From Candidatus Jordarchaeales archaeon (GTDB lineage Archaea; Asgardarchaeota; Jordiarchaeia; Jordiarchaeales; Freyrarchaeaceae): a stretch of DNA of 32,000 bases. The notes below the pieces were generated by a model, which saw nothing but the letters and a program-made list of their open reading frames with translations, was not told where the DNA came from and made no database searches. Both the position numbers and the translations under genes were made by a program. Location: contig JAWAHN010000001.1 in assembly GCA_038889235.1 (NCBI GenBank), positions 995,636-1,027,635 on the forward strand. The letters are read 5' to 3'. Every line of letters starts with the position of its first letter. The stretch's first letter is position 1. Shown piece by piece: positions 288-31,406 of this stretch.

Positions 288-451
288 CACCAAAAGTAGT
301 TTAACACTTTAGAGCTGCCGCCCCTGTTTTCGTCGCTTCCTTTTACTCCAGCTTTATGGGCTTAACATATTTAAAACCTTTCAGTTATTTTCCTTCAGTG
401 AAGTCGCAAATATGAAGATTAATTGAAGAAAGAAAAAGGAGGTTTTAGTAT

Positions 452-1044
452 ATGTCGAAAGAACTTATCTACAAAGTAATTCTCGCAGGGGACGGAGACG
501 GGCTGGTGTATTCCTCTAACTGAGACACCAACCCGCCGGAACTGTAGGAAAGACCAGTCTAATCTCTCAGTACATTAGTGGAAAATTCCAAGTCGAGTAC
601 AAGAAGACTATACATGGGTAGAATTACTACCCGTGGGTTAAAGGCATCGATATATTCTCGAAAATACTTAAGGTAGGTGACTCTGCAGTTAAACTAGTAA
701 TTTGGGACCTTGGAGGGCAACCTCACTTTAAACATGTCCGAAGTAGTTTCTATCAGGGCGCTATGGGCGCCATGCTTGTTTACGACATAACGCGCCGCTC
801 CACGTTCGAAAATTTAGAAAACTGGAGGAAAGAAATGCTGAAAAACACGAAAGAAGAACCAGTCACTATAGTTATAGGGAACAAAGTTGATCTTGCGCAC
901 TTGCGCGAAGTAAGAACAGAGGATGGAAAAAAATATGCCAAAGAGATAAACGCTCCTTTTTTTGAAACATCCGCAAAGGACGGCAAGAACGTTGAGGCCG
1001 CCTTTGAGACGTTAGTCAAAATGATCTTAGAAAGGAAAAAATGA
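452..1044 (+). CDS. Ras/Rab-like small GTPase, intron-interrupted: join(452..497,542..611,642..1044), 172 aa
   Basis: SD-like aaaaggaggt precedes ATG 452. The joined translation is MSKELIYKVILAGDGAVGKTSLISQYISGKFQVEYKKTIGIDIFSKILKVGDSAVKLVIWDLGGQPHFKHVRSSFYQGAMGAMLVYDITRRSTFENLENWRKEMLKNTKEEPVTIVIGNKVDLAHLREVRTEDGKKYAKEINAPFFETSAKDGKNVEAAFETLVKMILERKK. It has P-loop GDGAVGKT, WDLGG, NKVD and ETSAK motifs. The exons total 519 nt (173 codons). Confidence 0.88.
498..541 (+). other. Predicted BHB-type intron 1 (44 nt) in the P-loop codons of the small GTPase mRNA
   Basis: Hairpin CGGGCUGGUGU/ACACCAACCCG (499-509/525-535) has one mismatch. Helix CGG/CCG (493-495/536-538) is followed by 5' bulge AG|A (496-498), with 3' cut AA|C (540-542). 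Removal gives GGA GCT GTA GGA AAG ACC = GAVGKT. The 44-nt length breaks frame and contains an in-frame TGA. The central helix has 3 bp plus a mismatch. Confidence 0.8.
612..641 (+). other. Predicted BHB-type intron 2 (30 nt) in the switch-I codons of the small GTPase mRNA
   Basis: Hairpin CAUGGGUAG AAUUA CUACCCGUG (613-635). Four-bp helix GACU/GGUU (606-609/636-639). 5' bulge AU|A (610-612) and 3' bulge AA|A (640-642). Contains in-frame TAG at 619. Removal gives KKTI-GIDIF. Confidence 0.8.
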
Positions 1045-1183
1045 TATATTTTGTCTTTTTCCTATATCACAGAAGATAGGTTTACACAGTCTTCCTTATC
1101 GTCTTTAGGAGAACGCTTAAAAATTGGTTACCTTACGTATTCTTGTAAACGCCCGCCAGCTAGCGACTCTTGGAGGCTTTTAG

Positions 1184-2723: not shown

Positions 2724-3371
2724 TTGCATGTAGAGCGTGTTCGCATCCCCTCTGGAACTATTACATTAGAAGGTGAAATAGGAAAACCAGAAAAATTTAA
2801 CGGAAAAATTGCGGCTGTTATATGCCACCCCCACCCGTTGTTTGGGGGGACTATGCATAACAACGTAGTAAGCGCCTTATTCTACACTTTACCCGAAAAT
2901 GGAATAGTAGCCTTGCGTTTTAACTTCAGGGGAGTAGACGGGTCCCAAGGAGAATACGAAAACGGAATAGGTGAAAAAGAAGATGTTAATTCAGCAATAA
3001 ACTACCTCATTAAAGAACTATCTCCACGATTGAAGGAAGTAGCCGTAATAGGATACTCATTTGGAGCATGGGTTGGTTTATCGGCTGCCGTTGAAAATAA
3101 ACTAGCAAAAATCATGATTGCAATAGCTCCACCTGTAAAACTGTTCAATTTTGATTACATTAAAAACGTAAAAAAACCCAAGTTTTTCATACTAGGCGAT
3201 CTGGACGACTTTGCCCCACTAGAAGACTTCCTGACGTTTTACGAAAAAGTATCTCCTCCTAAAAATTACGCAATATTGCAAGGAGCGGATCACTTTTTCT
3301 ACGGTTACGAGTTAGAACTAGCAACTATTGTAACTAACTTATTGAAAACGGGCGTTAATAAAAAGAAATAA
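2724..3371 (+). CDS. Alpha/beta hydrolase family protein
   Basis: ICHPHPLFGGTMHNNVV, FNFRGVDGSQGEYENG, nucleophile elbow GYSFGAW and the GADHFFYG histidine motif. Confidence 0.8.
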   Translation: MHVERVRIPSGTITLEGEIGKPEKFNGKIAAVICHPHPLFGGTMHNNVVSALFYTLPENGIVALRFNFRGVDGSQGEYENGIGEKEDVNSAINYLIKELSPRLKEVAVIGYSFGAWVGLSAAVENKLAKIMIAIAPPVKLFNFDYIKNVKKPKFFILGDLDDFAPLEDFLTFYEKVSPPKNYAILQGADHFFYGYELELATIVTNLLKTGVNKKK

Positions 3372-3401
3372 AAAGAATTAGAGACAAATCACACCTTTCC
3401 C

Positions 3402-3824
3402 CTACTTTTTAGCCTTCTTTCCCTCTTCCTTTTGCTCCCCTGTCTCTTTCTTCTCTTCTTCAGCTTCAAGCTCTTCTAGAGGAACCGGCGGCGGCGTCGT
3501 CAACATAGTCCAACCTATCCATGCAGCTATACCGAGTATCGCTGTTATTGCCAGCCAAATGGGAACACCCACAGCCAGAAACTTTGGCGGAGTGGGAATC
3601 CACTGAAGTATCGCTGGTGCAGTGAGCGAGTAGATTAAGCTTTCAATGGCGTGCGAACCTAGGTAAATTACTAAGATGTTGTTCGACAAAAGTAGTGGAA
3701 TCACGCTAGACTCTACCTGTGACCCAATCCAACAAGCATAGTATAATGCCCAGTATGTGTACCAGACTATCAGTATCACTGAAACTATTAGAATTATCCC
3801 TCCATAAACCTTGTCCTTTGACAT
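3402..3824 (-). CDS. Membrane protein with several predicted TM helices and a charged Glu/Lys-rich C-terminus
   Basis: Hydrophobic segments (IILIVSVILIVWYTYWALYYACW, LAVGVPIWLAITAILGIAAWIGW) with tail EELEAEEEKKETGEQKEEGKKAKK. Confidence 0.55.
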   Translation of the reverse strand: MSKDKVYGGIILIVSVILIVWYTYWALYYACWIGSQVESSVIPLLLSNNILVIYLGSHAIESLIYSLTAPAILQWIPTPPKFLAVGVPIWLAITAILGIAAWIGWTMLTTPPPVPLEELEAEEEKKETGEQKEEGKKAKK

Positions 3825-7715: not shown

Positions 7716-8033
7716 CTAGAAATTGTTTCTATACTCTTTTTCGAAGAACCCCCACGAGATTTTACTTCCAAAAGACCGCAACCCTTTTTCCTTCAACTGC
7801 TTAAGTATCTGCGCAGCATATTCTTCGGTGATTTCCCCCCTTTTCCTCAGGTACTCTATGATCTCTAGTGCCTGCTCTTCATTGTCGCATCTTCGTAGCA
7901 GCCTAACGACGTCTATATCCTTTATTTCACAAGTCCTTATACCCCTTATCGGAATCCTTATCCCTTCTGCTTCTTCGAGTTCTTTTGCAAGATGGGGGAA
8001 CTCCTCCCTAAACCTCTTTCTGTCGTACTCCAT
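7716..8033 (-). CDS. Small conserved archaeal protein (resembles DUF2095)
   Basis: ORF with N-terminal DRKRFREEFPHLAKELE...; family assignment is from memory of its pattern. Confidence 0.5.
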   Translation of the reverse strand: MEYDRKRFREEFPHLAKELEEAEGIRIPIRGIRTCEIKDIDVVRLLRRCDNEEQALEIIEYLRKRGEITEEYAAQILKQLKEKGLRSFGSKISWGFFEKEYRNNF

Positions 8034-8159
8034 TAGTCGACGCCTCTATCATTTCTTACTAATATTCTGGTTTTTCGAACTTAAAATAATTAGGTTTTAG
8101 AATACAATTTTTTCAAATATTAGCACAAAACTTAATATTATAATTCAATAATTTATTTT

Positions 8160-9920: not shown

Positions 9921-11105
9921 CTAGAAGCATCTGTGAATTACTCCTACGCCTCCCTCTTGATACTCTTTCTTTGTAACCCACATCTTCTGGAACGTCCTTA
10001 ACGAAGCTAATATTGATCCTCCGATCCAGACACTATATTGTCTCTCGGGCGGCGCAATTATCTTTATTTCAACATTTTCTGGAACTAGCTCTGATATCTC
10101 TTTGTGCAATCTTTCCTTTAAACCTGGAAACATTGTTGAGCCGCCTGAAAGGACTATGTTAGCGTATAACTCTCTTCTCAAGTCGATGTCGCACTTCTTA
10201 ATAGTCTCGACTATTGCTTCATCTAGCGGCGGTGCATCTAATCCGATAACTCCCGGGTTGAAGAAGACTTCTGGTGCTAGGAATCTCTCGGCACCAATAG
10301 TAATAGTTTCGCCATCAGGTAGTACGTATGTTTTTTCTATGCCTGAAACTTTCTCTGCAAGTTTGAGCTCCTTTTCAGGGTCCAATGCCACATAGCAGAG
10401 CTTTTCCTTAATGTCCCTGACTATTTCTCTTTCAGCTGTTGAAACGAAGCTGTAACCGCGTTGTCTTAGGAGCCTTCGCAAGTACTCAGTTATATCCCTC
10501 CCTGCAAGATCTATCCTGGTAATGGCGTGTGTTAACGCGAAACCTTCATAGATTGGAACTATGTGTGTTACTCCATCTCCCGAGTCTACCACTAGACCCG
10601 TTGTCCTTCCAGACGCATAGAGCGAGAGAACAGCTTGCATTGCAACATATATAGCCGGTGTATTAAATGTTTCAAACATTATTTCAGCCATTTTTTCCCT
10701 GTTTTCACGCGGGTTCAGCGGCGGCTCCGTTAGTAATACAGGGTGCTCTGAAGGGTCGACTCTCAAGTCGTTGAAGAACGTGTAGTGCCAGATTTTTTCC
10801 ATAGCATCCCAATCTGTAACTACACCATGCTCTATTGGGTAAACTAACCTGAGTACTCCTCGCAGGTTAAGTGCCTCCTCTCCAATGTAATATTCTCTCG
10901 TGTAGTGTTCTACGTCCGTCATTATTGACGCATACTTCGGATATCCTATACAAGTTGGCCATACGGAACGAGGCTGATCCTCCCCTGCAAACCCATTCTT
11001 AGTTAACCCTGTTCCATTGTCTATTACTATAGGTTTCGCAGCAATCATTTCTTCTTCGCGTGCCATTTTCTCATATCTCCTAACATTTTTTAAAGGTCTC
11101 TTCAT
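9921..11105 (-). CDS. Actin-family protein closely resembling eukaryotic actin/lokiactin; true start may be the internal MAREEEM
   Basis: [142 protein letters not shown], and C-terminal HRCF. Confidence 0.97.
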
Positions 11106-11312
11106 TCTTCCCCATTTTTCGAAAGAAATTATTGCCTTATGTTCTATTTTAATTTTTTGAATGTCATTTTTGTCAACAATATAGTTGATAACTACACAAT
11201 TTTTTCTCTTTTAATGGCGATCTTCTCAAATACGAGATGTTTAGCATGCGTGGTGCTTATATACGCTTCTGGAGCTTCAGCAGTAAAGGATGTACGAGGA
11301 GGTTTTTAAAAT

Positions 11313-11492
11313 TTGGAGTTAGTTAGAGACGAAAAAGGATCTCCCATGGTGGAAGAGGCCATCCTCATCGGTCTGTCAGTTTTGGGGTTAGCTATAATGC
11401 TAAATATAATGTTCGGCGTCTTTAATTGGTCAGGAAATTTACTAACGAACTTAATCAATTATCTAAACCACCTATTTGGCAGCATCTTCTAA
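11313..11492 (+). CDS. Predicted 59-aa single-pass membrane microprotein (TTG start; alternative ATG at 11346)
   Basis: gaggagg lies upstream of TTG. Translation MELVRDEKGSPMVEEAILIGLSVLGLAIMLNIMFGVFNWSGNLLTNLINYLNHLFGSIF has one strong hydrophobic helix and an amphipathic tail. Confidence 0.5.
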   Translation: MELVRDEKGSPMVEEAILIGLSVLGLAIMLNIMFGVFNWSGNLLTNLINYLNHLFGSIF

Positions 11493-11618
11493 TTCCATAA
11501 ACTTAACTTTTCAGGAAAAGGCAAAGCAAAAATAAAATATTGTCTTTTTCCTTTATTCCATTCTTAGTTTTAGTTTTGCGCATAGGTCATACATCAAAGT
11601 AGTTAAGAAGGTGGGCAT

Positions 11619-12029
11619 TTGGTTGACTCGCTCTGGAAAGGCCGATTTAACAGGTGCTGGCTTGTGGGTATGTTCGTCCAACAAACTTTACTTTCTATCG
11701 AGGGAGTAAAGATCCCGTCTGTCGAGGAAATACTGCATTCCAATCCCGAGATGACGGTGGCAGACGCGATAAACATGCGAAGAGAGTTGTATGGTGTTAA
11801 AGTTGACTGGGAGAAGCGCAGACTTATTGTGCACTTCAAGGGAAAATATTATGATGTCACCGATCTTCTCATAGACATAGTAAACGAAAACAGTTACGGA
11901 GAAAGAGTTGACGAATTAGGGATGGATACCTGCGGCTTCGATTTTTGTAGTGCCGTGAAAGAAGCACAAAAGAAGATAATTCTTAAGATAGTAACCGGCG
12001 AAATGACGCCCACTTATGAAGTAATTTGA
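11619..12029 (+). CDS. Hypothetical protein, 136 aa; N-terminus uncertain
   Basis: Long ORF with TTG start and upstream aaggtgg; no recognised family. Confidence 0.5.
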   Translation: MVDSLWKGRFNRCWLVGMFVQQTLLSIEGVKIPSVEEILHSNPEMTVADAINMRRELYGVKVDWEKRRLIVHFKGKYYDVTDLLIDIVNENSYGERVDELGMDTCGFDFCSAVKEAQKKIILKIVTGEMTPTYEVI

Positions 12030-12043
12030 GTACAAGCGAGTAG

Positions 12044-12835
12044 TTAAATTTTCCCATTTTTCTCCTTTCTTTGCCATTCTTCGATGCCTAGAGCTATTCT
12101 CCCCACTATCGTCGGGTCTTTCATGGCTGCTCGTGCAATAGAAACAGCGTCAGCACCTGCCTTTATCATTTCAATAGCACTCTCAACGTCCCTAATCGAA
12201 TTATTACCTATTAAAAAAACATTAACGCTTTTGGAAATCTTTCTAATTAAATCTAGGTCTCCACAATTCACTCCCTCCTTCATCGCGTCTACATGTATCG
12301 CGTCGACCCCTGCTTTTTCAGCAATTCTGGCAACATTCAAGTCGTCCACCACATTCCCTCTCCACTTAAGTATAACTTTTATATCGAAAGAGTCTTTTAG
12401 ACGTGTTATCCACTCAGAAAGCTCATCTAGCCTTTTCAAAAGAGCCTGTCCTGCACCTACTGCCATAATTTCAGGCTGGCGGCAATGTGCATCTATTTCC
12501 AACGCTACCGCGCCACTCTTTGACACCACTTCTCCTGCAAACATAATTCCCTCTAAACTTGTTGCACGTGCATTTACAGCGACAGGCGCCCCTCCCTCCA
12601 GCGCTCTTCTAACCTCCTTTATAAGAAAATCCTCAATCTCTTCTACTTCAACTTCGAACTCTGTTCGCCCCCTAAGCTTCACGGCCTTGCCAGCCATAAC
12701 CGTTTCTCGGTCAAAGTTCAAACCTCCTAGAGTTACCATTCCCGCCCCCGCTTTCGCGGCACGGAAACAAAATTCTCCGTCACATATTCCAGCCATCGCG
12801 GCAAGTATCGCCTTACGTTTCAGGACGTCTCTCAT
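12044..12835 (-). CDS. Predicted TIM-barrel protein, dihydroorotate dehydrogenase/dihydrouridine synthase-like
   Basis: Repeated barrel features such as VILKWRGNVVDDLNVARIAEKAGVDAIHVDAM and FLIGNNSIRDVESAIEMIKAGADAVSIARAAM; overlaps cofD by 4 nt. Confidence 0.65.
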   Translation of the reverse strand: MRDVLKRKAILAAMAGICDGEFCFRAAKAGAGMVTLGGLNFDRETVMAGKAVKLRGRTEFEVEVEEIEDFLIKEVRRALEGGAPVAVNARATSLEGIMFAGEVVSKSGAVALEIDAHCRQPEIMAVGAGQALLKRLDELSEWITRLKDSFDIKVILKWRGNVVDDLNVARIAEKAGVDAIHVDAMKEGVNCGDLDLIRKISKSVNVFLIGNNSIRDVESAIEMIKAGADAVSIARAAMKDPTIVGRIALGIEEWQRKEKNGKI

Positions 12836-13767
12836 TTTCCCCTCACCAAGCTCATTATTTCAGAGGCTAAACGTTGCATATCTCTTTCATCATTCATTAA
12901 CGTATCCGTGACGTATGGAATAACACCAATAGATCTTACTTTATCCACCAGCGAACTGTCAACTCTGTCGAAGACCAAGATTTCGGCCACATCTTTGTAA
13001 AATTGTGCCACACCAAGTGGGGAAACTTCAACACCTAGGCTTCGCATAAGCTTTGCCGCCGGCCCGCTTACAGCTTTCCCTCCCACTATAGGGCTAACTG
13101 CAATCTTCCTGCAGCGTACTCTCCTGATAGTTTCTCTAATTTCCTTGATAGAAAGTATTGGTGCTATACTTGTAACCGGGTTACTTGGTCCTATGATAAC
13201 TGCTTCCGCTCCTTTTAGTACATCAATAACCTCGCGAGGGGGCCTGGCTTTTTCCGCCCCTCTATATTCTACACCAAAAACCTCAGGTTGTCCCTTATAC
13301 TTAACCCAAAATTCTTGCAAGGAAAGGACGCCAAGGTTAGTGTTTATGTATGTTTGTACCTTGTCATTTGTCATAGGGAGAATTCTTACTCTGACATCAA
13401 GCTTGTCGCACATGATTTTTACTACTTCGGAAAGCTGAAGGCCGCATCTGAGAAGATGTGTCCTCCATATGTGCGTTGCCAAATCGCGATCTCCCAAAGC
13501 GAACCAGGTGGGTAAACCATATCTATGCATCATTTCGAGGCAATTGAAAGTGTCCCCCTTAATCCCCCAAAATTTTTCTTCGTCAAGAATACCCGCAACG
13601 AGGTAGACTGCGCTATCTAAATCCGGACTTATGTATAGACCATGAAGTTCAATATCGTCGCCAGTGTTCACTATGACTGAAATGTCTTCTTGCGGAAGAA
13701 CTTTAAGAAACCCTTTAAGCAGTTTTAGCCCACCAGTGCCTCCTGTTAATAATGCAATCAACGTCAC
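12832..13767 (-). CDS. cofD: 2-phospho-L-lactate transferase (F420 biosynthesis)
   Basis: LLTGGTGGLKLLKGF, VNTGDDIELHGLYISPDLDSAVYLVAG, and VSPIVGGKAVSGPAAKLMRSLG; adjacent to cofE. Confidence 0.92.
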   Translation of the reverse strand: MTLIALLTGGTGGLKLLKGFLKVLPQEDISVIVNTGDDIELHGLYISPDLDSAVYLVAGILDEEKFWGIKGDTFNCLEMMHRYGLPTWFALGDRDLATHIWRTHLLRCGLQLSEVVKIMCDKLDVRVRILPMTNDKVQTYINTNLGVLSLQEFWVKYKGQPEVFGVEYRGAEKARPPREVIDVLKGAEAVIIGPSNPVTSIAPILSIKEIRETIRRVRCRKIAVSPIVGGKAVSGPAAKLMRSLGVEVSPLGVAQFYKDVAEILVFDRVDSSLVDKVRSIGVIPYVTDTLMNDERDMQRLASEIMSLVRGK

Positions 13768-13768
13768 G

Positions 13769-14527
13769 TCACCTGAAAAGGTCTCTTTCAGGCGGCATTA
13801 AAAGTTCTTTGTAACTTCCGTCACCTTTAATGTACTTGTATCCTCTTATTATTACTACGGGAATTCCTTCATCGGCTTGCCCCATGATTAGCTCGGCTGC
13901 TGAAGCTAACTCGTCCGCCACGGCGACTATTGTCGAACGCAAGACGTACCCATACAAATCCTTGTCTCCGCGCCTGTCCCAAAGCGGCTTAAGTCCCGCT
14001 ACTCCTATAGCTACGTTTACCACTCCCTCCCTGAAGGGTCTTCCAAACGTATCAGAGATTATAACAGCAACATCTGCCCCCGTGAGGTTGAAAATGCCCT
14101 CTCTAATGCGTCTTGCCGACTCGTCTGGGTCCAAAGGGAGAAGCGTGACTTTCCCCCCTCCGGATACATTTGACTCGTCTACCCCCGAATTCGCGCAAAC
14201 GAATCCGTGAAATGTTTCCGTAATAATTATGTGTCGCATCCTAACAACTTTTTTTGCCTCTCTCAGGATAACTTCAACCATTTGGGGGGACTTGCCGATT
14301 TGTTTGCTTACATTGATAGCGAAAGGTGAGGGTGTAACCTTCGACAAGTCTACAACTCGTCCCTCAGCCTTAGAAACTATCGATTGCGCCACAACGATGA
14401 CATCATTATCGAGTATTTTAACACCTTGCTTTTCCGCTGCTTCAACGATCAGCTTCGCTACGTCATCTCCTTCCTTCACAAGCGGTATACCTTTAATTCC
14501 TATTAATTCTATTTTAATTTGTACCAC
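13769..14527 (-). CDS. cofE: Coenzyme F420:L-glutamate ligase
   Basis: ELIGIKGIPLVKEGDDVAKLI, DVIVVAQSIVSKAEGRVV, GFVCANSGVDESN, and ISDTFGRPFREGVVNVAIG. Confidence 0.93.
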   Translation of the reverse strand: MVQIKIELIGIKGIPLVKEGDDVAKLIVEAAEKQGVKILDNDVIVVAQSIVSKAEGRVVDLSKVTPSPFAINVSKQIGKSPQMVEVILREAKKVVRMRHIIITETFHGFVCANSGVDESNVSGGGKVTLLPLDPDESARRIREGIFNLTGADVAVIISDTFGRPFREGVVNVAIGVAGLKPLWDRRGDKDLYGYVLRSTIVAVADELASAAELIMGQADEGIPVVIIRGYKYIKGDGSYKELLMPPERDLFR

Positions 14528-14610
14528 CCTCTTAAGCGCCTCTTCTGCTCTTAGATAGCATCACGTTTATCTTAATTCTTTTGAATTAGAGGAAGCGTGG
14601 AGGTCGTGCG

Positions 14611-15285
14611 ATGAACAATACATACTTGGTTATTCCTTTTAAAGGACTGGAAACTGCAAAATCGAGATTATCTCCCTTCCTTCCTCCTGATGCACGACAA
14701 AAACTAAGTCTTGCTATGTTACTTGACGTAATAACTGCCGCAAAGAAGTCTAAAATGTTCAAGAAAATTCTTATTGTGACAACAGACAGAAAATTTAAAG
14801 TTTCCTATAAAGGAGTCACCCTCATATTCGAGTCTCCTCCATATGATCTAAACAAAGCAGTTCAACTCGGAGTCGACTTTTGTTCTAAGCATGGCGCAAA
14901 AGCCGCTCTCATCCTACCCGCAGATTTACCACTTATAACGCCAAGCGATATAAAAAACATAATTAAGATGGGGGAGCCAGATGAGAAAGTTGTTGTTATT
15001 TCTCCGTCAGAGTCAAATGGGACTAACGCACTCTTCATGAAACCTCCCGGGATCATTCCCCCTTACTTTGGGGAGGACAGCTTCAACAAGCATATTTCTG
15101 CATCCAGAGAGCGAGGTGTATCAGTCAAAGTATATACCTCCCCGACAATTAAGACTGACATAGATTACATCAACACACTTTTAATAAACGCCCTTAATTT
15201 AGGTAAGAACACGAAGAAAGTAATTGATGTAATAAAAAACCATCTGAAAGTGGAAGGTAAAACCCTTCAACCATCCGCAATATAA
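14611..15285 (+). CDS. cofC: 2-phospho-L-lactate guanylyltransferase (F420 biosynthesis)
   Basis: VIPFKGLETAKSRLSPFLPPDARQKLSLAMLLDVITAA, LILPADLPLI, and SPSESNGTNALFMKPPGIIPPYFGEDSFNKH. Confidence 0.9.
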   Translation: MNNTYLVIPFKGLETAKSRLSPFLPPDARQKLSLAMLLDVITAAKKSKMFKKILIVTTDRKFKVSYKGVTLIFESPPYDLNKAVQLGVDFCSKHGAKAALILPADLPLITPSDIKNIIKMGEPDEKVVVISPSESNGTNALFMKPPGIIPPYFGEDSFNKHISASRERGVSVKVYTSPTIKTDIDYINTLLINALNLGKNTKKVIDVIKNHLKVEGKTLQPSAI

Positions 15286-15323: not shown

Positions 15324-15749
15324 TTACTCTGCAAAAACCTCTTTGATCTCCTTCACCGCATCTTCTATTATTCGTTCATACCTTCTCTCTTTATGTAGAA
15401 GGACCGATGCTGCATCAGCAATCCTCCGTTTAGCTGAAATCGGTAGTATAGCTGCCAGTATAAACCTTTTATTTGAGACCTCTATACTTTTGAATACAAT
15501 AATCCCATCGCTTGTTTCTATAGTTACTTGTTCTAGGTCTCCAAGTCCTATCTGATCTTTAACTCTAATGGCAGTCGCGTGAGCTAGACCAGCCATCGCG
15601 GCGATTACCTGTTTACTTTCAGGACCGCTCGCCTCAGCAACCACTAGTCCATCCTCCCTAGAAATGACACTCGCTGAAAAACCCCCCTTTTTGTTCATGT
15701 CCTCTAAAATTTTTGTTAATGTCGAAAGCTTATCTTTAGACATCAACAC
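15324..15749 (-). CDS. Roadblock/LC7 domain protein
   Basis: Roadblock fold pattern: LTKILEDM...GFSASVISREDGLVVAEASG...VIAAMAGLAHATAIRV...VTIETSDGIIVFKSI...FILAAILP. Confidence 0.75.
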   Translation of the reverse strand: MLMSKDKLSTLTKILEDMNKKGGFSASVISREDGLVVAEASGPESKQVIAAMAGLAHATAIRVKDQIGLGDLEQVTIETSDGIIVFKSIEVSNKRFILAAILPISAKRRIADAASVLLHKERRYERIIEDAVKEIKEVFAE

Positions 15750-15867: not shown

Positions 15868-16842
15868 TTGAAACTAAACTTTGTTATTCCTAAGGGCTCC
15901 CTTCAGGAAGCCACGCTGGCTTTGCTTAGACAGGCTGGATACGAGATAAAGGGAAGTGATAGGTCCTATAGGCCTTGGATAAACGACCCAGAAATAAACC
16001 TCAAAGTTCTCAGACCGCAAGAAATACCTACCTTCGTGGAATCAGGGGCTCATGACTTAGGAATCACCGGGATGGACTGGGTAGAAGAAACTTCAGCAGA
16101 CGTCGTAATATTGTCAAACCTAGCTTATGGTAAAGTAAAAATAGTTTTAGCTGTTCCAAACTACTGGACTCATATAAATTCCCTTTCAGATTTAATACGT
16201 ACCTTCGCTGAAAATGGAAAGCCTATACGTATAGCAACAGAATATATAAATATCACAGCTCGGTACGTATCATCAAACCCCGAATATAAATCACGTTTCG
16301 GCTCGCTAACCCCTGAGGTCATAACCCCCTGGTACAGATATGGAGAAAACCCTAACGTAAAAATACTGCTTTCCTTTGGCGCTACAGAGGCTAAGCCGCC
16401 TGAGGATGCGGAAGCAATAGTCGATAATACCGAAACCGGGACCACTATTCTCTCTAACAACCTTAAGATAATCGAAGAAATATGTGAATCTCAAGCGGTT
16501 CTCATATCTAACAGAGATGCTTTAAGCCACCCTTGGAAAAGAGAAAAGATAAAAGATGTAATGACTCTTCTCGAGGGTGCGGTTGACGCGAGAGAACGCT
16601 TGCACATATTTATGAATGTGAAGGAAGAAAACTTACAAGCGCTTTTGAAAATACTCCCCGCACTCAAAAAGCCGACAATATCTCCACTTGCTGGGGAAGA
16701 AGGATGGTACGCCATTAATACCGTTATTCGCAAAGATGAGTTTCTGAGAATAATACCGTACCTCAGGCAATTAGCGCAAGGACTAGTGGTTTACGAGCCG
16801 CGGCAAGTCCTCCCACTCGAAAAAATACAGAACAAGTTCTAA
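15868..16842 (+). CDS. hisG: ATP phosphoribosyltransferase
   Basis: FVIPKGSLQEATLALLRQAGYEI, LRPQEIPTFVESGAHDLGITGMDWVEE, and VDNTETGTTILSNNLKII. Confidence 0.92.
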   Translation: MKLNFVIPKGSLQEATLALLRQAGYEIKGSDRSYRPWINDPEINLKVLRPQEIPTFVESGAHDLGITGMDWVEETSADVVILSNLAYGKVKIVLAVPNYWTHINSLSDLIRTFAENGKPIRIATEYINITARYVSSNPEYKSRFGSLTPEVITPWYRYGENPNVKILLSFGATEAKPPEDAEAIVDNTETGTTILSNNLKIIEEICESQAVLISNRDALSHPWKREKIKDVMTLLEGAVDARERLHIFMNVKEENLQALLKILPALKKPTISPLAGEEGWYAINTVIRKDEFLRIIPYLRQLAQGLVVYEPRQVLPLEKIQNKF

Positions 16843-16912: not shown

Positions 16913-19585
16913 GTGTCTAGCGTGTCCTTGAGGTTTACCAAAAGAATCCACTCCATACGGTTTAGTGTGCTTTCTCCAGACGAAATAAGGCGTATGTCCG
17001 CTACACGAATAATTACGCCCGACACGTATGATGAGGACGGTACCCCCATAGAGACTGGACTTATGGACGAACGTTTGGGGACTGTAGAACCTGGGCGGCG
17101 TTGTAAGCTTTGCGGTAACCCCATAGGTGAATGTATCGGCCACTTCGGGCATATCGAACTCGTCCGCCCGGTGATACACGTAGGCTTTGTTAAAATTCTT
17201 CATAAAGTTCTAAGAGCTACATGCCGACGTTGTTGCAGACTTCTGCTTCCAGAGGAACAGATAAACGCCTTTTTAATAGAAATGGAAAAGTACGAGGCTG
17301 AAACCGGAGAATTAAGTGACGAAATAGCTGAAGAGGTATTCCGCCGCGCATCCAGAACCACGATATGCCCTCACTGCGGCGAAACCCAACGCAAAGTTAG
17401 GCTTGAAAAACCAACTACGTTTTATGAGGAAACAGAGACTGGATCGATAAGGCTCACGCCGAGTGATGTACGCGAACGGTGCGAACGTGTACCTGACACG
17501 GATTGCAAACTCCTCGGAATAAATCCAAAGTACGCCCGTCCTGAGTGGATGGTACTTACAGTTCTCCCCGTGCCACCGGTCTGTGTCAGACCAAGTATAA
17601 CCCTTGAATCAGGTGTTCGTTCAGAAGATGATTTAACTCATAAGCTCGTCGATATAATCAGGATAAATCAACGTTTAAGGGAGAACATAGAAGCGGGGGC
17701 TCCACAACTTATTGTTGAAGACTTATGGGAGTTGTTGCAATATCACGTAACCACTTACTTTGACAATGAAATCTCCGGCATACCTCCAGCCCGTCATCGT
17801 TCAGGAAGAGTTCTTAGAACTCTTTCCCAGAGATTGAAAGGCAAAGAAGGGCGTTTCAGGAGCAATTTATCCGGAAAACGCGTAGACTTCTCAGCTAGGA
17901 CGGTGATATCTCCTGACCCAAACATCGGGATTAATGAAGTAGGAGTGCCTATCGAGGTAGCTAAAATCCTGACCATACCCGAAAGGGTAACGGAACTCAA
18001 CATCGAAGAAATGAAAGAACTTGTTATGAGAGGACCTGACGAACACCCTGGAGCAAACTACATAATTAGAAGCGACGGGAAACGAATAGACTTGAGGTTT
18101 GTCAAAAACAGGCAAAAAGTCGCTGAAGAACTTACTCCCGGATGTATAGTTGAACGCCACCTTAACGACGGAGATATAGTACTTTTCAATAGACAACCGT
18201 CCCTCCACAGAATGAGTATCATGGCACATGAAGTTAGAGTTATGCCCTACAAGACGTTTAGGTTAAACCTCTGTGTGTGTCCACCTTACAATGCCGACTT
18301 TGATGGGGACGAGATGAACCTCCACGTACCGCAATCAGAGGAAGCTAGAGTAGAAGCATACGTACTTATGAGAGTTCAAGAACATATCCTAAGCCCACGT
18401 TACGGAGGTCCAATCATAGGAGGGCTCCAGGACTTCATTACATCTGCATACCTTTTAACCAGAAAACAGACATTACTCACTAAAGAAGAAGCTTGTGAAC
18501 TCGCTCTAGCTGCTGGAATAACCGAGCTTCCTCCACCAGCAGTAACAGAACCAGTTCCTCTTTGGACTGGAAAACAAATTTTCAGTTTGACCCTACCTAA
18601 GGGGCTTACTGCACGTTTCAAATCAAAGCTGTGCAAACACTGTGATACATGCCGCAAGGATGAGTGTCCTCACGATGCATACGTGGTAGTTATCGACGGA
18701 GTTCTTCAGAAGGGTGTCATAGACAAAGCGGCTTTCGGGGCAGGCGTCCCCGAAAGTCTTCTTCACAAAATAGCAAGAGATTTCGGCACCGATGCTGCAA
18801 GGCAATTCCTAGATTCAGTAACACGAATGTTAATCAGGTACATTACGAACAAGGGCTTCACCTTAGGTCTAGATGACATGGAAATACCTGAAGAAGCGGT
18901 TCAACGCATAAACGAAATACTAGAGGAAGGAGAGCGCAGAGTTAACGAACTAATAGAGACCTACAGGAGAGGCGAGCTTGAAGCTTTACCGGGACGTACC
19001 ATAGAAGAAAGTCTTGAAATGTTAATTATGCAAGAACTCAACAATGTTAGAGACAAAGCTGGTGAAATCGCCAGCGAATATCTAGGTCCAAACAACCATG
19101 CAGTAATAATGGCGTTGACAGGTGCACGCGGCACCATGCTTAACCTTGCAATGATGGCTGCATGTGTAGGGCAACAATCAGTTAGAGGGCAACGTATACA
19201 TAGAGGATATCGAGGAAGAACTTTACCACACTTCAAAAAAGGCGACCTGAGCGCTAAATCAAGAGGCTTTGTAGCTTCCCACTACAGGAAAGGATTAGAC
19301 CCAATAGAGTTCTTCTTCCACGCGATGGGTGGACGAGAGGGCTTGGTAGACACTGCAGTAAAAACGTCGCAATCCGGATACCTACAACGCAGGCTCATTA
19401 ACGCTCTTCAAGATGTAAAGGTCGAATATGACGGCACGGTAAGAGACTCCACAGGTCGTATCATACAATTCAAATACGGAGAAGACTTAGTTGACCCAAC
19501 TAAAAGTTGGTATGGTAAAGCAGTCAACATTGACACAATAATTGATGAATACATATTGCAGCATTCTAAATTATCCAAAAAATGA
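16913..19585 (+). CDS. rpoA1: DNA-directed RNA polymerase subunit A' (Rpo1N)
   Basis: Zinc motif CKLCGNPIGECIGHFGH, LSGKRVDFSARTVISPDPN, catalytic PYNADFDGDEMNLHVPQ, and bridge helix region FFHAMGGREGLVDTAVKTSQSGYLQRRL. Confidence 0.97.
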   Translation: MSSVSLRFTKRIHSIRFSVLSPDEIRRMSATRIITPDTYDEDGTPIETGLMDERLGTVEPGRRCKLCGNPIGECIGHFGHIELVRPVIHVGFVKILHKVLRATCRRCCRLLLPEEQINAFLIEMEKYEAETGELSDEIAEEVFRRASRTTICPHCGETQRKVRLEKPTTFYEETETGSIRLTPSDVRERCERVPDTDCKLLGINPKYARPEWMVLTVLPVPPVCVRPSITLESGVRSEDDLTHKLVDIIRINQRLRENIEAGAPQLIVEDLWELLQYHVTTYFDNEISGIPPARHRSGRVLRTLSQRLKGKEGRFRSNLSGKRVDFSARTVISPDPNIGINEVGVPIEVAKILTIPERVTELNIEEMKELVMRGPDEHPGANYIIRSDGKRIDLRFVKNRQKVAEELTPGCIVERHLNDGDIVLFNRQPSLHRMSIMAHEVRVMPYKTFRLNLCVCPPYNADFDGDEMNLHVPQSEEARVEAYVLMRVQEHILSPRYGGPIIGGLQDFITSAYLLTRKQTLLTKEEACELALAAGITELPPPAVTEPVPLWTGKQIFSLTLPKGLTARFKSKLCKHCDTCRKDECPHDAYVVVIDGVLQKGVIDKAAFGAGVPESLLHKIARDFGTDAARQFLDSVTRMLIRYITNKGFTLGLDDMEIPEEAVQRINEILEEGERRVNELIETYRRGELEALPGRTIEESLEMLIMQELNNVRDKAGEIASEYLGPNNHAVIMALTGARGTMLNLAMMAACVGQQSVRGQRIHRGYRGRTLPHFKKGDLSAKSRGFVASHYRKGLDPIEFFFHAMGGREGLVDTAVKTSQSGYLQRRLINALQDVKVEYDGTVRDSTGRIIQFKYGEDLVDPTKSWYGKAVNIDTIIDEYILQHSKLSKK

Positions 19586-28550: not shown

Positions 28551-29759
28551 CTACTCGACATGTACTCTTAAGAGATCTACGTCGCCGGGTTCTCCCGGAA
28601 TCCGCCTCTTGAGTATTTCAAGGAACTCTCTAACCGACCTTTTGATATCTTTAGACTGCGTGATGTACCTTCCAACTATGAGTATGTGCGCTCCAGCATC
28701 TAATGCTTCGTCGGCATTTTCTGGAACAATGCCTCCTGCCACGGCAAAAAGCATTTTTTGCCCCTCAAAGGTCTTCTTAATCTCTTTTATCAGCTCCCAC
28801 CTAGATCTCCTTCCGGACGACTCTGTATCGATTGCTCTGTGAATTATTACAACATCAGGGAGTTCTTTCAGCGACTTCAATTTCTCAATAGGGTCTGGGA
28901 CATCCATCATATCTAGGAAAGCATAAATTCCAAGTCGTCTCGCTTCATAGATGAACTTATCAATGGATTCCTTAGATGCGAGCCCAGAAGCAACTACTCC
29001 ATCAGCAGTCTCCTCATATGCTAGGTCGACTTCTACCTGTGCAGTGTCTAAAGTTTTCAGGTCAGCTACTATAAACATGTCTGGAACTACTTCTCTAAGT
29101 TTGCCGATAACGCTTACACCATGCCTCTTTATCAGCGGAGTGCCTGCCTCGAGTATTATCATATCACTCTTCGGTATTTCACTTACTACACGAATAGCCT
29201 GCTCCAATGACGGATTATCGAGTGCTATCTGCAAGTATGGAGGCCGCCATAGTCGAGGAACCTTAAAGCCCATTATTGGGTGCACCGCCCTATCTTTATC
29301 ATACATTATCTTCTCTAGCGGCGGATATCCTTGCAAGGCTCGTCTTAAAGCAAGCTTTGTAGCACTATAATTGTAGTGGTATATCTTCCTGTAATCCTTT
29401 GCTTCCGGGTGAACGAAAACGCTTGCTATTATCACCCATTCATCTGCCTTATCCGCTGGAATAATCCCTTCCTCTACAGCGTCCGCTATAGCTTTAGCCA
29501 CAGCAGACTGCGCTGGACCGAATATCTTGTTCGCCTGTTCCATGTTTTTAATAGTGACTTTCGGGATGATCAATACGTGCGGTTTTGGTGGTAGATTAGG
29601 TCTAATCACCCCTAGAAGCGGCGTGTGTCCCTGGGACATATGGGTTAAACCTTGGGCAAACGCTACTCCAACTGGGCCAAACTTGTCCCCTATGATTAGA
29701 TCAATGTGCGCTACCTCCGCACCTTTGCCAACCAACGCCTCACCTATGTAAAACTCCAT
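28551..29759 (-). CDS. fae-hps: Bifunctional formaldehyde-activating enzyme / 3-hexulose-6-phosphate synthase
   Basis: N-terminal Fae: [47 protein letters not shown] and [35 protein letters not shown]-terminal Hps: [43 protein letters not shown], and [27 protein letters not shown]. Confidence 0.93.
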
Positions 29760-29790: not shown

Positions 29791-30738
29791 TCAATCTACT
29801 GATTTAAACCTTCTGAGCATGAACTTTTCTCCCTTTAGTTGTCGCATCTTTTTACTTACTAATATTCTTGCAACTTTTCCACTCCACTTTTCATGAGCTA
29901 TGTCAACACTTTCTTCAGTTAAAATGAGATCAATATACTCGATCTGTTGCCTTACAGCTTGTTCAAGAACATCGTCTGCTATGTTATTAACTCCCTTAAT
30001 TATACCATAAACTAGCAACTGTTCTAGGGGTGAACGCCAATAGTGGTAAGAATAAGAAACTTTAACTTTCCACCTATTTAGCACTTTTCTTAGAAACCTA
30101 GTATTAATGCTGTGCGTTATCACAACAGGTTCACGGTAATTCGTAAGTAAAGTTAACAGTTTCTCATAGCTTTCCCACACCTTGTTTCCCTCACTAAGAT
30201 AAGCGTTAAGTAGTTGCTTCCACTCGTTTAAAAAGAGCTTACCGGTAGCTTTGCACTTAAATTCGAGAAGCAGCTGTTTTTCTGAAAGAGCAGCGCTTTC
30301 TATATGCTTTGTTACATCGTGATAACAGTACACGTCAAACTTCATTAACTTATATTTTACCTTTAACGCGTTTAAAATTGGTGAAAAAACCTTCCCTAGG
30401 TAACGAGTCGCAGGTTCACTTGCACCCGTAAGTTCCATATATTCTTTCCACAGCTCTCCCTCCTCAACTAATTCTAATAAGACGCACCGTGTGGTTTCAC
30501 TCAACTCCTCTGGTAATGGAATGAAAAGAGCGTCGAACTCTTTACTCAAAATGTACTCTCCCGCACGCCTGCCCGCCTCCACGAATCTCGGGACATGGAG
30601 AAGTATCACACTTCCCATCGTGTCATCTGTTTTAAATGTACTTTTCATATGCTCTCTCCTCTCACTTACCATATGTGCTCTTTTCCGCGCTTGCAAGTGT
30701 CTTTTATCTCTGGAAGGCGTGTCTCTTGGCCGCAACAT
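29791..30738 (-). CDS. Hypothetical protein; N-terminus probably over-extended
   Basis: Long ORF; the start may be the internal MKSTFK or MGSVIL. Confidence 0.5.
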   Translation of the reverse strand: MLRPRDTPSRDKRHLQARKRAHMVSERREHMKSTFKTDDTMGSVILLHVPRFVEAGRRAGEYILSKEFDALFIPLPEELSETTRCVLLELVEEGELWKEYMELTGASEPATRYLGKVFSPILNALKVKYKLMKFDVYCYHDVTKHIESAALSEKQLLLEFKCKATGKLFLNEWKQLLNAYLSEGNKVWESYEKLLTLLTNYREPVVITHSINTRFLRKVLNRWKVKVSYSYHYWRSPLEQLLVYGIIKGVNNIADDVLEQAVRQQIEYIDLILTEESVDIAHEKWSGKVARILVSKKMRQLKGEKFMLRRFKSVD

Positions 30739-30788
30739 TTACCAAAGGAAAAAGAGGGAAAAAGGAAATAAAAGCGTCATGGCTACAT

Positions 30789-31406
30789 GTGTATGAATAC
30801 ATATTAACTTATGGTGGTGTTCCTGTTTTGGCTCCCGATGTAAAGAAGGTTCACAGGTTTGGCGTCGAAGACGATTTAGACGCATCCTTTCTTCATGAGA
30901 AATTTGACGAACTAGAAGAGATAACAGTTTTAGAGTTAGAAAAACTGGCTGATGTTTTACATCTCCTTTTGGATTTAGAACCTTACACATGTCCAGTAAG
31001 AGGTGTAGATACTCCTTGCATTCTATGCGAAGAGAAATGCAGCGCTGCCAATTACCAAGAGATCGAAACTAAACTCGGAAAGGGGCGGAAAACGATCAAC
31101 AGCTCCACGTTCTTTCTCGCCTTTGAGAAACATGACGAGGTTGAAAAGTTTCTAATTAGAAAGTTAGCACGGGAGTTATCCAAGAAAAAACTTAATGTAA
31201 TTGACCCAGAAGAAGGGTATGATATCGGCTTTCTCTTTACACATGAAGATAGGTGGAGAATGGAAGAAATTGTATCCTTTGTGGTGAAACTGTTTGAAAA
31301 AGTGAGAGTTTTGCTGCCTGAAGCAAAGTCCCTCCTCAACTCCTGGGTGAGAAAGAAAGTAGAAGAGATGGAGCGCGAAGAAATGTTAAAGAAAGGGAAG
31401 CACTGA
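30789..31406 (+). CDS. Hypothetical Cys-containing acidic protein; ORF track extends to 30636 but that part overlaps the opposite-strand ORF
   Basis: Coding-like region VYEYILTYGGVPVLAPDVKKVHRFG...CPVRGVDTPCILCEEKCSA.... The GTG start is a guess. Confidence 0.55.
   Translation: MYEYILTYGGVPVLAPDVKKVHRFGVEDDLDASFLHEKFDELEEITVLELEKLADVLHLLLDLEPYTCPVRGVDTPCILCEEKCSAANYQEIETKLGKGRKTINSSTFFLAFEKHDEVEKFLIRKLARELSKKKLNVIDPEEGYDIGFLFTHEDRWRMEEIVSFVVKLFEKVRVLLPEAKSLLNSWVRKKVEEMEREEMLKKGKH

Follow-up and report, generated by a model that had tools for sequence, protein, structure and literature searches.

The question raised by this locus was why only the C-terminal part of a Rab-type small GTPase gene is visible to gene prediction, and whether the remainder of the protein is encoded just upstream in interrupted form. 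In the window (the whole stretch of 32,000 nt of contig JAWAHN010000001.1 that was analysed), the sole long ORF listed at the Rab locus spans 763..1044 on the plus strand and encodes 93 aa. This ORF had been the only trace of the gene in the ORF track for the first-pass annotation as well, which proposed that excision of 498..541 and 612..641 supplies the missing N-terminus and that the cuts exactly restore GDGAVGKTSL and KKTIGIDIF. We confirmed that removal of the two inserts (44 nt and 30 nt) from 452..1044 leaves 519 nt, which form a complete ORF for a Rab/Ras GTPase of 172 aa, and that both motifs are intact in the spliced translation.

The spliced protein matched the Pfam Ras family (PF00071) over profile positions 1-161 of 162 (E=2.2e-54), and its residues 3-172 aligned with the solved Thorarchaeota Rab (PDB 7ezb; E=3.6e-46) gap-free over both junctions. 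All five G motifs were present (G1-G5: GDGAVGKT, KKTIG with T38, DLGGQ, GNKVD and ETSAK), so that the G domain is complete. In the unspliced frame 0, a TGA stop occurs within insert 1 and an in-frame TAG within insert 2, and only the last 93 codons of exon 3 are visible to an ORF finder. Removal of insert 2 as 613..642 yields an identical product, and it is the bulge-helix-bulge (BHB) geometry described below that picks 612..641. In our reading, this locus of a Jordarchaeia/Freyarchaeia (Asgard) archaeon is very probably a single, functional gene for a Rab-type small GTPase, interrupted by two archaeal BHB introns that are predicted to be excised by EndA (Table 1).

Table 1. Features of the predicted split Rab gene, with positions counted in the window; arrows mark predicted cuts or the corresponding points in the protein.
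Feature	Position	Strand	Description
TATA-box-like element, putative promoter, AACATATTTAAAAC	364..377	+	core TTAAA invariant and AACAYATTTAAAAC context conserved among 6 orthologues aligned over their upstream regions
Shine-Dalgarno-like GGAGG	438..442	+	9 nt before the start codon
Exon 1	452..497	+	codons 1-15 (MSKELIYKVILAGDG) and first base of Ala16
Intron 1 (predicted)	498..541	+	44 nt, phase 1, within the P-loop GDG↓AVGKT
Intron 1 central helix	492-495/536-539	+	ACGG with CCGG: A•G, C-G, G-C, G-C
Intron 1 bulges	496-498, 540-542	+	AG↓A and AA↓C; BHB geometry
Intron 1 helix h'	499-509/525-535	+	CGGG·UGGUGU/ACACCA·CCCG
Exon 2	542..611	+	remainder of Ala16 to first two bases of Ile39 (AVGKTSLISQYISGKFQVEYKKTI); reads (A)VGKTSLISQYISGKFQVEYKKTI
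Intron 2 (predicted)	612..641	+	30 nt, phase 2, within switch I KKTI↓GID
Intron 2 central helix	606-609/636-639	+	exon GACU with intron GGUU: G·U, A-U, C-G, U·G (4/4 pairs)
Intron 2 bulges	610-612, 640-642	+	AU↓A and AA↓A; BHB geometry
Intron 2 helix h'	613-621/627-635	+	9 bp
Exon 3	642..1044	+	last base of Ile39 to the stop codon (1042-1044); GIDIFSK...ERKK and stop; carries G3-G5
T-rich run TTTTGTCTTTTT	1049..1060	+	after the stop codon; read from the sequence; possible terminator

Selection, expression signals and public gene calls

The first-pass annotation had argued against decay of the gene from the lack of frameshifts and stops in the exons. The exons are indeed intact, and the argument is strengthened by the selection acting on them. 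Exons 1 and 2 of the window and of the L083 orthologue differed by 12 synonymous and 0 non-synonymous changes. For all pairs with estimable dS, dN/dS ranged from 0 to 0.08 in exons 1 and 2 and from 0.02 to 0.06 in exon 3, at a synonymous divergence among orthologues of 0.7-0.8 substitutions per site up to saturation; all exons are under strong purifying selection. The TATA-like element, which may act as the promoter, is accompanied by a purine-rich GGAGG/GGGGG block before the start codon (ATG or TTG) that is kept in all orthologues. The low dN/dS and the conserved TATA-like and Shine-Dalgarno signals together exclude decay for practical purposes and indicate that translation of the protein includes the small upstream exons. 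The T-rich run behind the stop codon is possibly an archaeal oligo-T terminator.

The closest database proteins to the GTPase (80-97% identity) were all N-terminally truncated calls annotated as Jordarchaeales or Freyarchaeota, two names for one Asgard group (PMC11291895). Public gene calls for the Rab orthologue were without exception truncated (94-164 aa) because of the introns. The call at 3001..3450 of L001 (P0004) uses an internal TTG start and translates intron 2 as LNIKRLYMGSKHYPWVK, and the L003 gene is called as two overlapping ORFs (2882..3007 and 3001..3435; 41 and 144 aa). No spliced protein or cDNA-like contig for the Rab gene was found in a collection of 15 billion proteins, in which full-length matches reached at most 66% identity and none was an exact match to any of the 6 spliced orthologue proteins; the gene calls seen there were fragments of 140-164 aa.

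Junction geometry and comparison of orthologues

In the BHB motifs of tRNAs and of cbf5, two 3-nt bulges are separated by a 4-bp helix, and EndA cleaves each bulge between its second and third residue (PMC2738675). In both inserts the 5' cut falls behind the second base of a 3-nt bulge that two helices enclose, and two 3-nt bulges on opposite strands around a four-position central helix were found for both introns in all orthologues. The central helix of intron 1 consists of three pairs and a conserved A•G and is therefore not fully paired. Neither intron has the strict hBHBh' form: the intron helix h' is present (4+6 to 11 bp), while an outer exon-exon helix h is lacking for intron 2 in every orthologue and amounts, for intron 1, to 1 bp adjoining the motif in the window compared to 3 bp in L001, L005 and L086. 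Both junctions are relaxed (HBh'-type) motifs, as in cbf5. The stem-loop inserts with BHB-like junctions of the first-pass annotation were thus recovered by MFE folds and by geometry, with the junction type now specified as relaxed.

The cut sites had been set by protein homology, independently of geometry, and it could be asked how often an arbitrary cut pair in the window fits the geometry by chance. This was the case for 2.4e-3 of pairs at the stringency of intron 1 and for 3e-6 at that of intron 2, so that the joint chance is of the order of 1e-8. Folding energies were only modestly better than those of shuffled sequences (z -1.6 to -3.5). A scan of the whole window with a loose BHB pattern returned 18,034 hits compared to roughly 17,000 in shuffled sequence, i.e. 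no enrichment, and the motif on its own therefore proves nothing; with strict settings, the scan mostly returned ordinary hairpins. These pattern-only scans served solely to estimate chance and are unable to find further introns. The weight of the evidence lies in the geometry, the homology and the comparative data, and not in folding energy alone.

Both ends of intron 1 are adjoined by a GGA direct repeat (494..496 and 538..540) that is kept in all orthologues. The BHB core is two-fold symmetric, with CGG-AR on both strands, and this explains the repeat, which is neither a target-site duplication nor a pair of hop codons. The exon half of the central helix is formed by codons whose residues are invariant (D-G-A in the P-loop for intron 1, T-I in switch I for intron 2), and this coding constraint may be what keeps the exon half of the BHB motif stable over evolution. 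The cbf5 intron likewise lies at a codon for a catalytic residue, Asp (PMC2738675). When the introns were checked by eye for C/D-box sRNA content, CUGA was seen in two orthologues, with no C box and no conservation.

Contigs carrying orthologues are syntenic with the window (LysE, Rab, 2-hydroxyacid dehydrogenase, AsnC regulator, hydrolase), and the set comprised 14 independent assemblies from NCBI, JGI, ENA and Logan, representing five sequence lineages besides the window. Insert 2 was present in all lineages at an identical codon position (30, 31 or 32 nt), and insert 1 in four lineages, again at an identical codon position (44, 52, 54 or 55 nt). The loops of the inserts are unrelated in sequence among lineages, while the helix-bulge core is conserved. 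When the window and 7 orthologues were cut by the BHB rule, each yielded an intact GTPase of 171-175 aa. For intron 1 (5 sequences), 94.3% of the alignment cells were paired compared to 24-57% in slid controls, with 5 compensatory pairs; for intron 2 (8 sequences), the values were 97.1% and 26-50%, with 4 compensatory pairs. The covariation score of each intron was reached by 0/500 shuffles. RNAalifold independently predicted the same structure for intron 2, and single-sequence MFE folds recovered the core in 5/5 sequences of intron 1 and 7/8 of intron 2.

A comparison with intron-less orthologues of related genomes, suggested by the first-pass annotation, bears on the junction of intron 1. 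The lineage of L003, L004 and L085 lacks insert 1 exactly (GGT GAT GGT GCC GTG GGA) and keeps intron 2, and its uninterrupted sequence is precisely the junction predicted for carriers of intron 1. The rule-derived junctions thus agree both with the intron-less L003 allele and with PDB 7ezb. No orthologue is more divergent by dN than that of the L003 lineage. Most simply, the common ancestor of the syntenic orthologues acquired intron 2, and intron 1 arrived once L003 had branched off; it is just as possible that L003 has lost intron 1 precisely.

Several further loci were inspected in the course of this comparison. Two full-length proteins with 61-66% identity (P0002 and P0014) were considered as intron-less orthologues and rejected, as they lie in a different neighbourhood (Rab-Rab-creatininase-RibD) and are uninterrupted paralogues. 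An interrupted metagenomic Rab gene in the more distant locus L055 (759..1260) has 20-nt GTAAGT...TAG introns and in-frame TAG codons; it most likely stems from a eukaryote of ciliate type that has reassigned a stop codon, and has nothing to do with the archaeal case. The distant Rab loci L039 and L070 showed no convincing introns on inspection. In the lineage without intron 1, a decayed TnpB of IS200/IS605 type lies directly upstream of the Rab gene (L003 1872..2700; L004 698..1526), its Cas12f1-like TNB domain being divided between two frames (profile positions 1-35 and 37-60). The frame break of this TnpB in L003 was rejected as an intron, since it has the look of a small frameshift and the gene is decayed. 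Behind the TnpB of L003 and L004 lies a structured GC-rich stretch that might be its ωRNA.

Proposed splicing route and rival explanations

We propose that a pre-mRNA containing both introns would be transcribed from the TATA-like promoter. Each intron would pair with the exon just upstream (GACGGAG for intron 1 and GACUAU for intron 2), and this pairing would create the four-position central helix between two 3-nt bulges. The tRNA-splicing endonuclease EndA would then cut past the second base of each bulge, an RtcB-type ligase would join the exons, and the introns would probably be released as circles of 44 nt and 30 nt. In this scheme the P-loop and switch I would be encoded by the spliced mRNA only, which would make splicing obligatory for an active GTPase. 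From the sequence we infer both the identities of the enzymes and the cutting and joining themselves. The route is plausible because Asgard EndA has been reported as an (αβ)2 form with an L1 loop that confers cleavage of relaxed BHB motifs (PMC5829648) and because the lineage is rich in non-canonical tRNA introns: introns interrupt 92-95% of the tRNA genes of Freyarchaeia and Atabeyarchaeia, in many cases at non-canonical positions and more than once in a gene (PMC11291895). The relaxed motifs observed here fit such a broad-specificity endonuclease. EndA of the ε2 form can likewise cut relaxed motifs.

An alternative explanation is that the gene is a pseudogene whose N-terminus was destroyed by two insertions, with at most a C-terminal fragment of 93-149 aa still being made, and the truncated products given by ORF finders and all public annotations would agree with this. 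It is, however, very unlikely in view of the 12 synonymous and 0 non-synonymous differences to L083 in exons 1 and 2 (dN/dS <=0.08 at saturated synonymous sites), the fact that five lineages share the codon positions of the inserts and show covariation in their stems, and the conservation of promoter and Shine-Dalgarno signals before exon 1; moreover, a fragment without P-loop and switch I could not bind nucleotide. The ribosome might instead skip the inserts by translational bypassing, as in the hop of T4 gene 60, or by other recoding, and the matching GGA codons that flank insert 1 in all orthologues, together with the stem-loop inside, could be taken as support for such a hop. We consider this as improbable as decay of the gene. 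The GGA repeat is accounted for by the BHB symmetry, and a hop would place Thr16 in the products of the window and L086 and Ala elsewhere, whereas splicing yields the invariant Ala that is also encoded by the intron-less L003 allele. In addition, insert 2 lacks matched take-off and landing codons and varies in length (30, 31 or 32 nt), and a covarying helix between exon and intron has no role in a hop.

If the inserts are removed from the RNA, this could also occur by a route other than EndA at the BHB bulges, i.e. through another nuclease-ligase pair or through offset cuts, and the relaxed form of the motifs leaves some room for it. To our knowledge, EndA is the only archaeal system acting at the RNA level that is known to excise elements this small. 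Both cut pairs match the EndA rule exactly in every orthologue and the lineage is rich in non-canonical tRNA introns (PMC11291895), so that another route is unlikely, albeit somewhat less so than decay or bypassing. Least credible of all is an assembly or sequencing artefact or a recent insertion of a MITE-like mobile element, which is suggested by the short size of the inserts and nothing more: four repositories hold 14 independent assemblies with the same architecture, the inserts and the gene have diverged together, and terminal inverted repeats are absent beyond the internal stem. Spliceosomal, group I and group II introns were ruled out by the AC...AA borders, by a length of 30-55 nt that is too short for ribozyme domains, and by the lack of Rfam matches in the window. 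Excision of both inserts as BHB introns by EndA is thus the reading that we compare with known systems below.

Known systems, implications and neighbouring genes

A BHB intron in the pre-mRNA of crenarchaeal cbf5 was described by Yokobori in 2009 (PMC2738675) and, reportedly, by Watanabe in 2002 and Yoshinari in 2006. In the literature surveyed, it is the only validated BHB intron in a coding region, besides which there are one case in a Haloferax 5' UTR and some unconfirmed predictions (PMC2738675, PMC7714728); these sources bear out the first-pass annotation, which called such introns rare and named cbf5 as the established example. The cbf5 intron has a length of 16-44 bp, and its splicing was confirmed by cDNA and in vitro cleavage. 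The Rab introns resemble it in being short (30-55 nt) and located in a protein-coding gene, in their relaxed BHB motifs with predicted cuts between the second and third bulge residues, in their position at the codon for a functionally critical residue, in their presence/absence polymorphism among related lineages, in the mis-annotation of the gene by gene callers and in the expected dependence on a hetero-oligomeric EndA. In contrast, cbf5 encodes a pseudouridine synthase, belongs to Thermoproteota and has one intron, whereas a Rab GTPase of an Asgard archaeon would here carry two, and the cDNA and cleavage evidence for cbf5 compares with sequence data for the Rab introns.

The tRNA introns of Freyarchaeia and Atabeyarchaeia (PMC11291895), which are the same lineage as the Rab host or a sister to it, and those of Thermoproteales are likewise small and commonly occur several per gene; they lie away from the standard 37/38 context, and their BHB motifs are relaxed. 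They differ in that presentation of the motif is aided by the fold of the mature tRNA, whereas the Rab motif stands in an mRNA and its exon half is also under coding constraint. The BHB intron in the 5' UTR of the Haloferax volcanii HVO_1309 mRNA, whose removal matters for expression (PMC7714728), offers an mRNA as EndA substrate, as predicted for Rab. It lies, however, in the UTR and not in a reading frame, and the euryarchaeal enzyme is strictly specific. The Thorarchaeota Rab 7ezb aligns with the spliced product including all G motifs, but its gene, like those of the paralogues P0002 and P0014, is uninterrupted. In eukaryotes, the mRNAs of HAC1 and XBP1 are spliced in a regulated manner by Ire1 together with a tRNA ligase or RtcB. 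By analogy, a short mRNA intron is there cut at stem-loops without the spliceosome, a tRNA ligase joins the exons and the frame is changed; the endonuclease and the motif are not those proposed for Rab, and regulation is known for HAC1/XBP1 only.

The mechanism class is already established, and what is new is the host lineage (the first case in Asgards), the host gene (eukaryotic-signature) and the occurrence of two introns in one gene. Our literature search found no report of a BHB intron in an Asgard protein-coding gene, in line with the expectation of the first-pass annotation that two such introns in a eukaryotic-signature small GTPase would be new. The Rab case would extend coding-region BHB introns to the closest prokaryotic relatives of eukaryotes, with two introns placed at the two most conserved motifs of a eukaryotic-signature GTPase, and would imply that the tRNA-type intron expansion of Freyarchaeia-like lineages has spilled into mRNAs. 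The Rab introns are not spliceosomal and say nothing direct on the origin of spliceosomal introns. As a clean and conserved substrate, the Rab pre-mRNA lends itself to tests of Asgard EndA and RtcB, and it makes testable how far mRNA splicing already belonged to gene expression in Asgard lineages. The locus also exposes a systematic annotation error, as every public call for the orthologue is truncated and one of them translates intron sequence.

A wider reading, which we regard as possible but rather doubtful, is that the Rab gene is the tip of a larger population of endonuclease-spliced introns in protein genes of Jordarchaeia, Freyarchaeia and Atabeyarchaeia, those for eukaryotic-signature proteins (ESPs) included. 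In the Asgard lineages concerned, almost every tRNA gene is intron-bearing (PMC11291895). Introns of this kind in protein genes would escape notice, since a gene that carries them is truncated or split by gene callers. If this were true, some Asgards would routinely depend on a form of mRNA splicing with no mechanistic relation to the spliceosome, possibly in regulatory use, and the ESP inventories for Jordarchaeia, Freyarchaeia and Atabeyarchaeia would be systematically incomplete.

Among the other ORFs of the window with a Pfam match, no sign of interruption was found; five ORFs without a Pfam match fall outside this check. A DUF2095 ORF (7716..8033, minus strand) was considered as a second interrupted gene because Pfam covers it only in part and a hit with BHB geometry lies immediately upstream (8052..8125), but it proved to be an ordinary gene without interruption, preceded by an AT-rich promoter. 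Neither the window nor the related loci gave a hit in tRNA or Rfam searches, which left no local tRNA introns to compare with. The 514-nt gene-free gap between the divergent actin gene and the ORF 11619..12029 (11105..11619) contains a long hairpin with a 13-bp stem (11318..11435, plus strand), for which a permissive Rfam search returned no match.

Three further genes of eukaryotic-signature type were found in the window: an Asgard-type actin (9921..11105, minus strand; Pfam Actin, 1e-139), a Roadblock/LC7 domain protein (15324..15749, minus strand; Pfam, 6e-7) and a 256-aa protein (30636..31406, plus strand), the C-terminal half of which matches ARPC4, the 20-kDa subunit of ARP2/3 (2.9e-7; profile positions 66-162 of 167). 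The metabolic context is otherwise ordinary, with a coenzyme F420 biosynthesis cluster at 12044..15285 (F420-0:γ-glutamyl ligase, CofD and a CofC-like gene) and a Fae/OMPdecase-family (Fae-Hps-like) fusion at 28551..29759. Archaea usually keep rpoA', rpoB and rpoA'' together. In the window, RpoA' (16913..19585, plus strand; 890 aa with Rpb1 domains 1-5) has no adjoining rpoB or rpoA'' and stands between hisG (15868..16842) and a ribose-phosphate pyrophosphokinase gene on the opposite strand.
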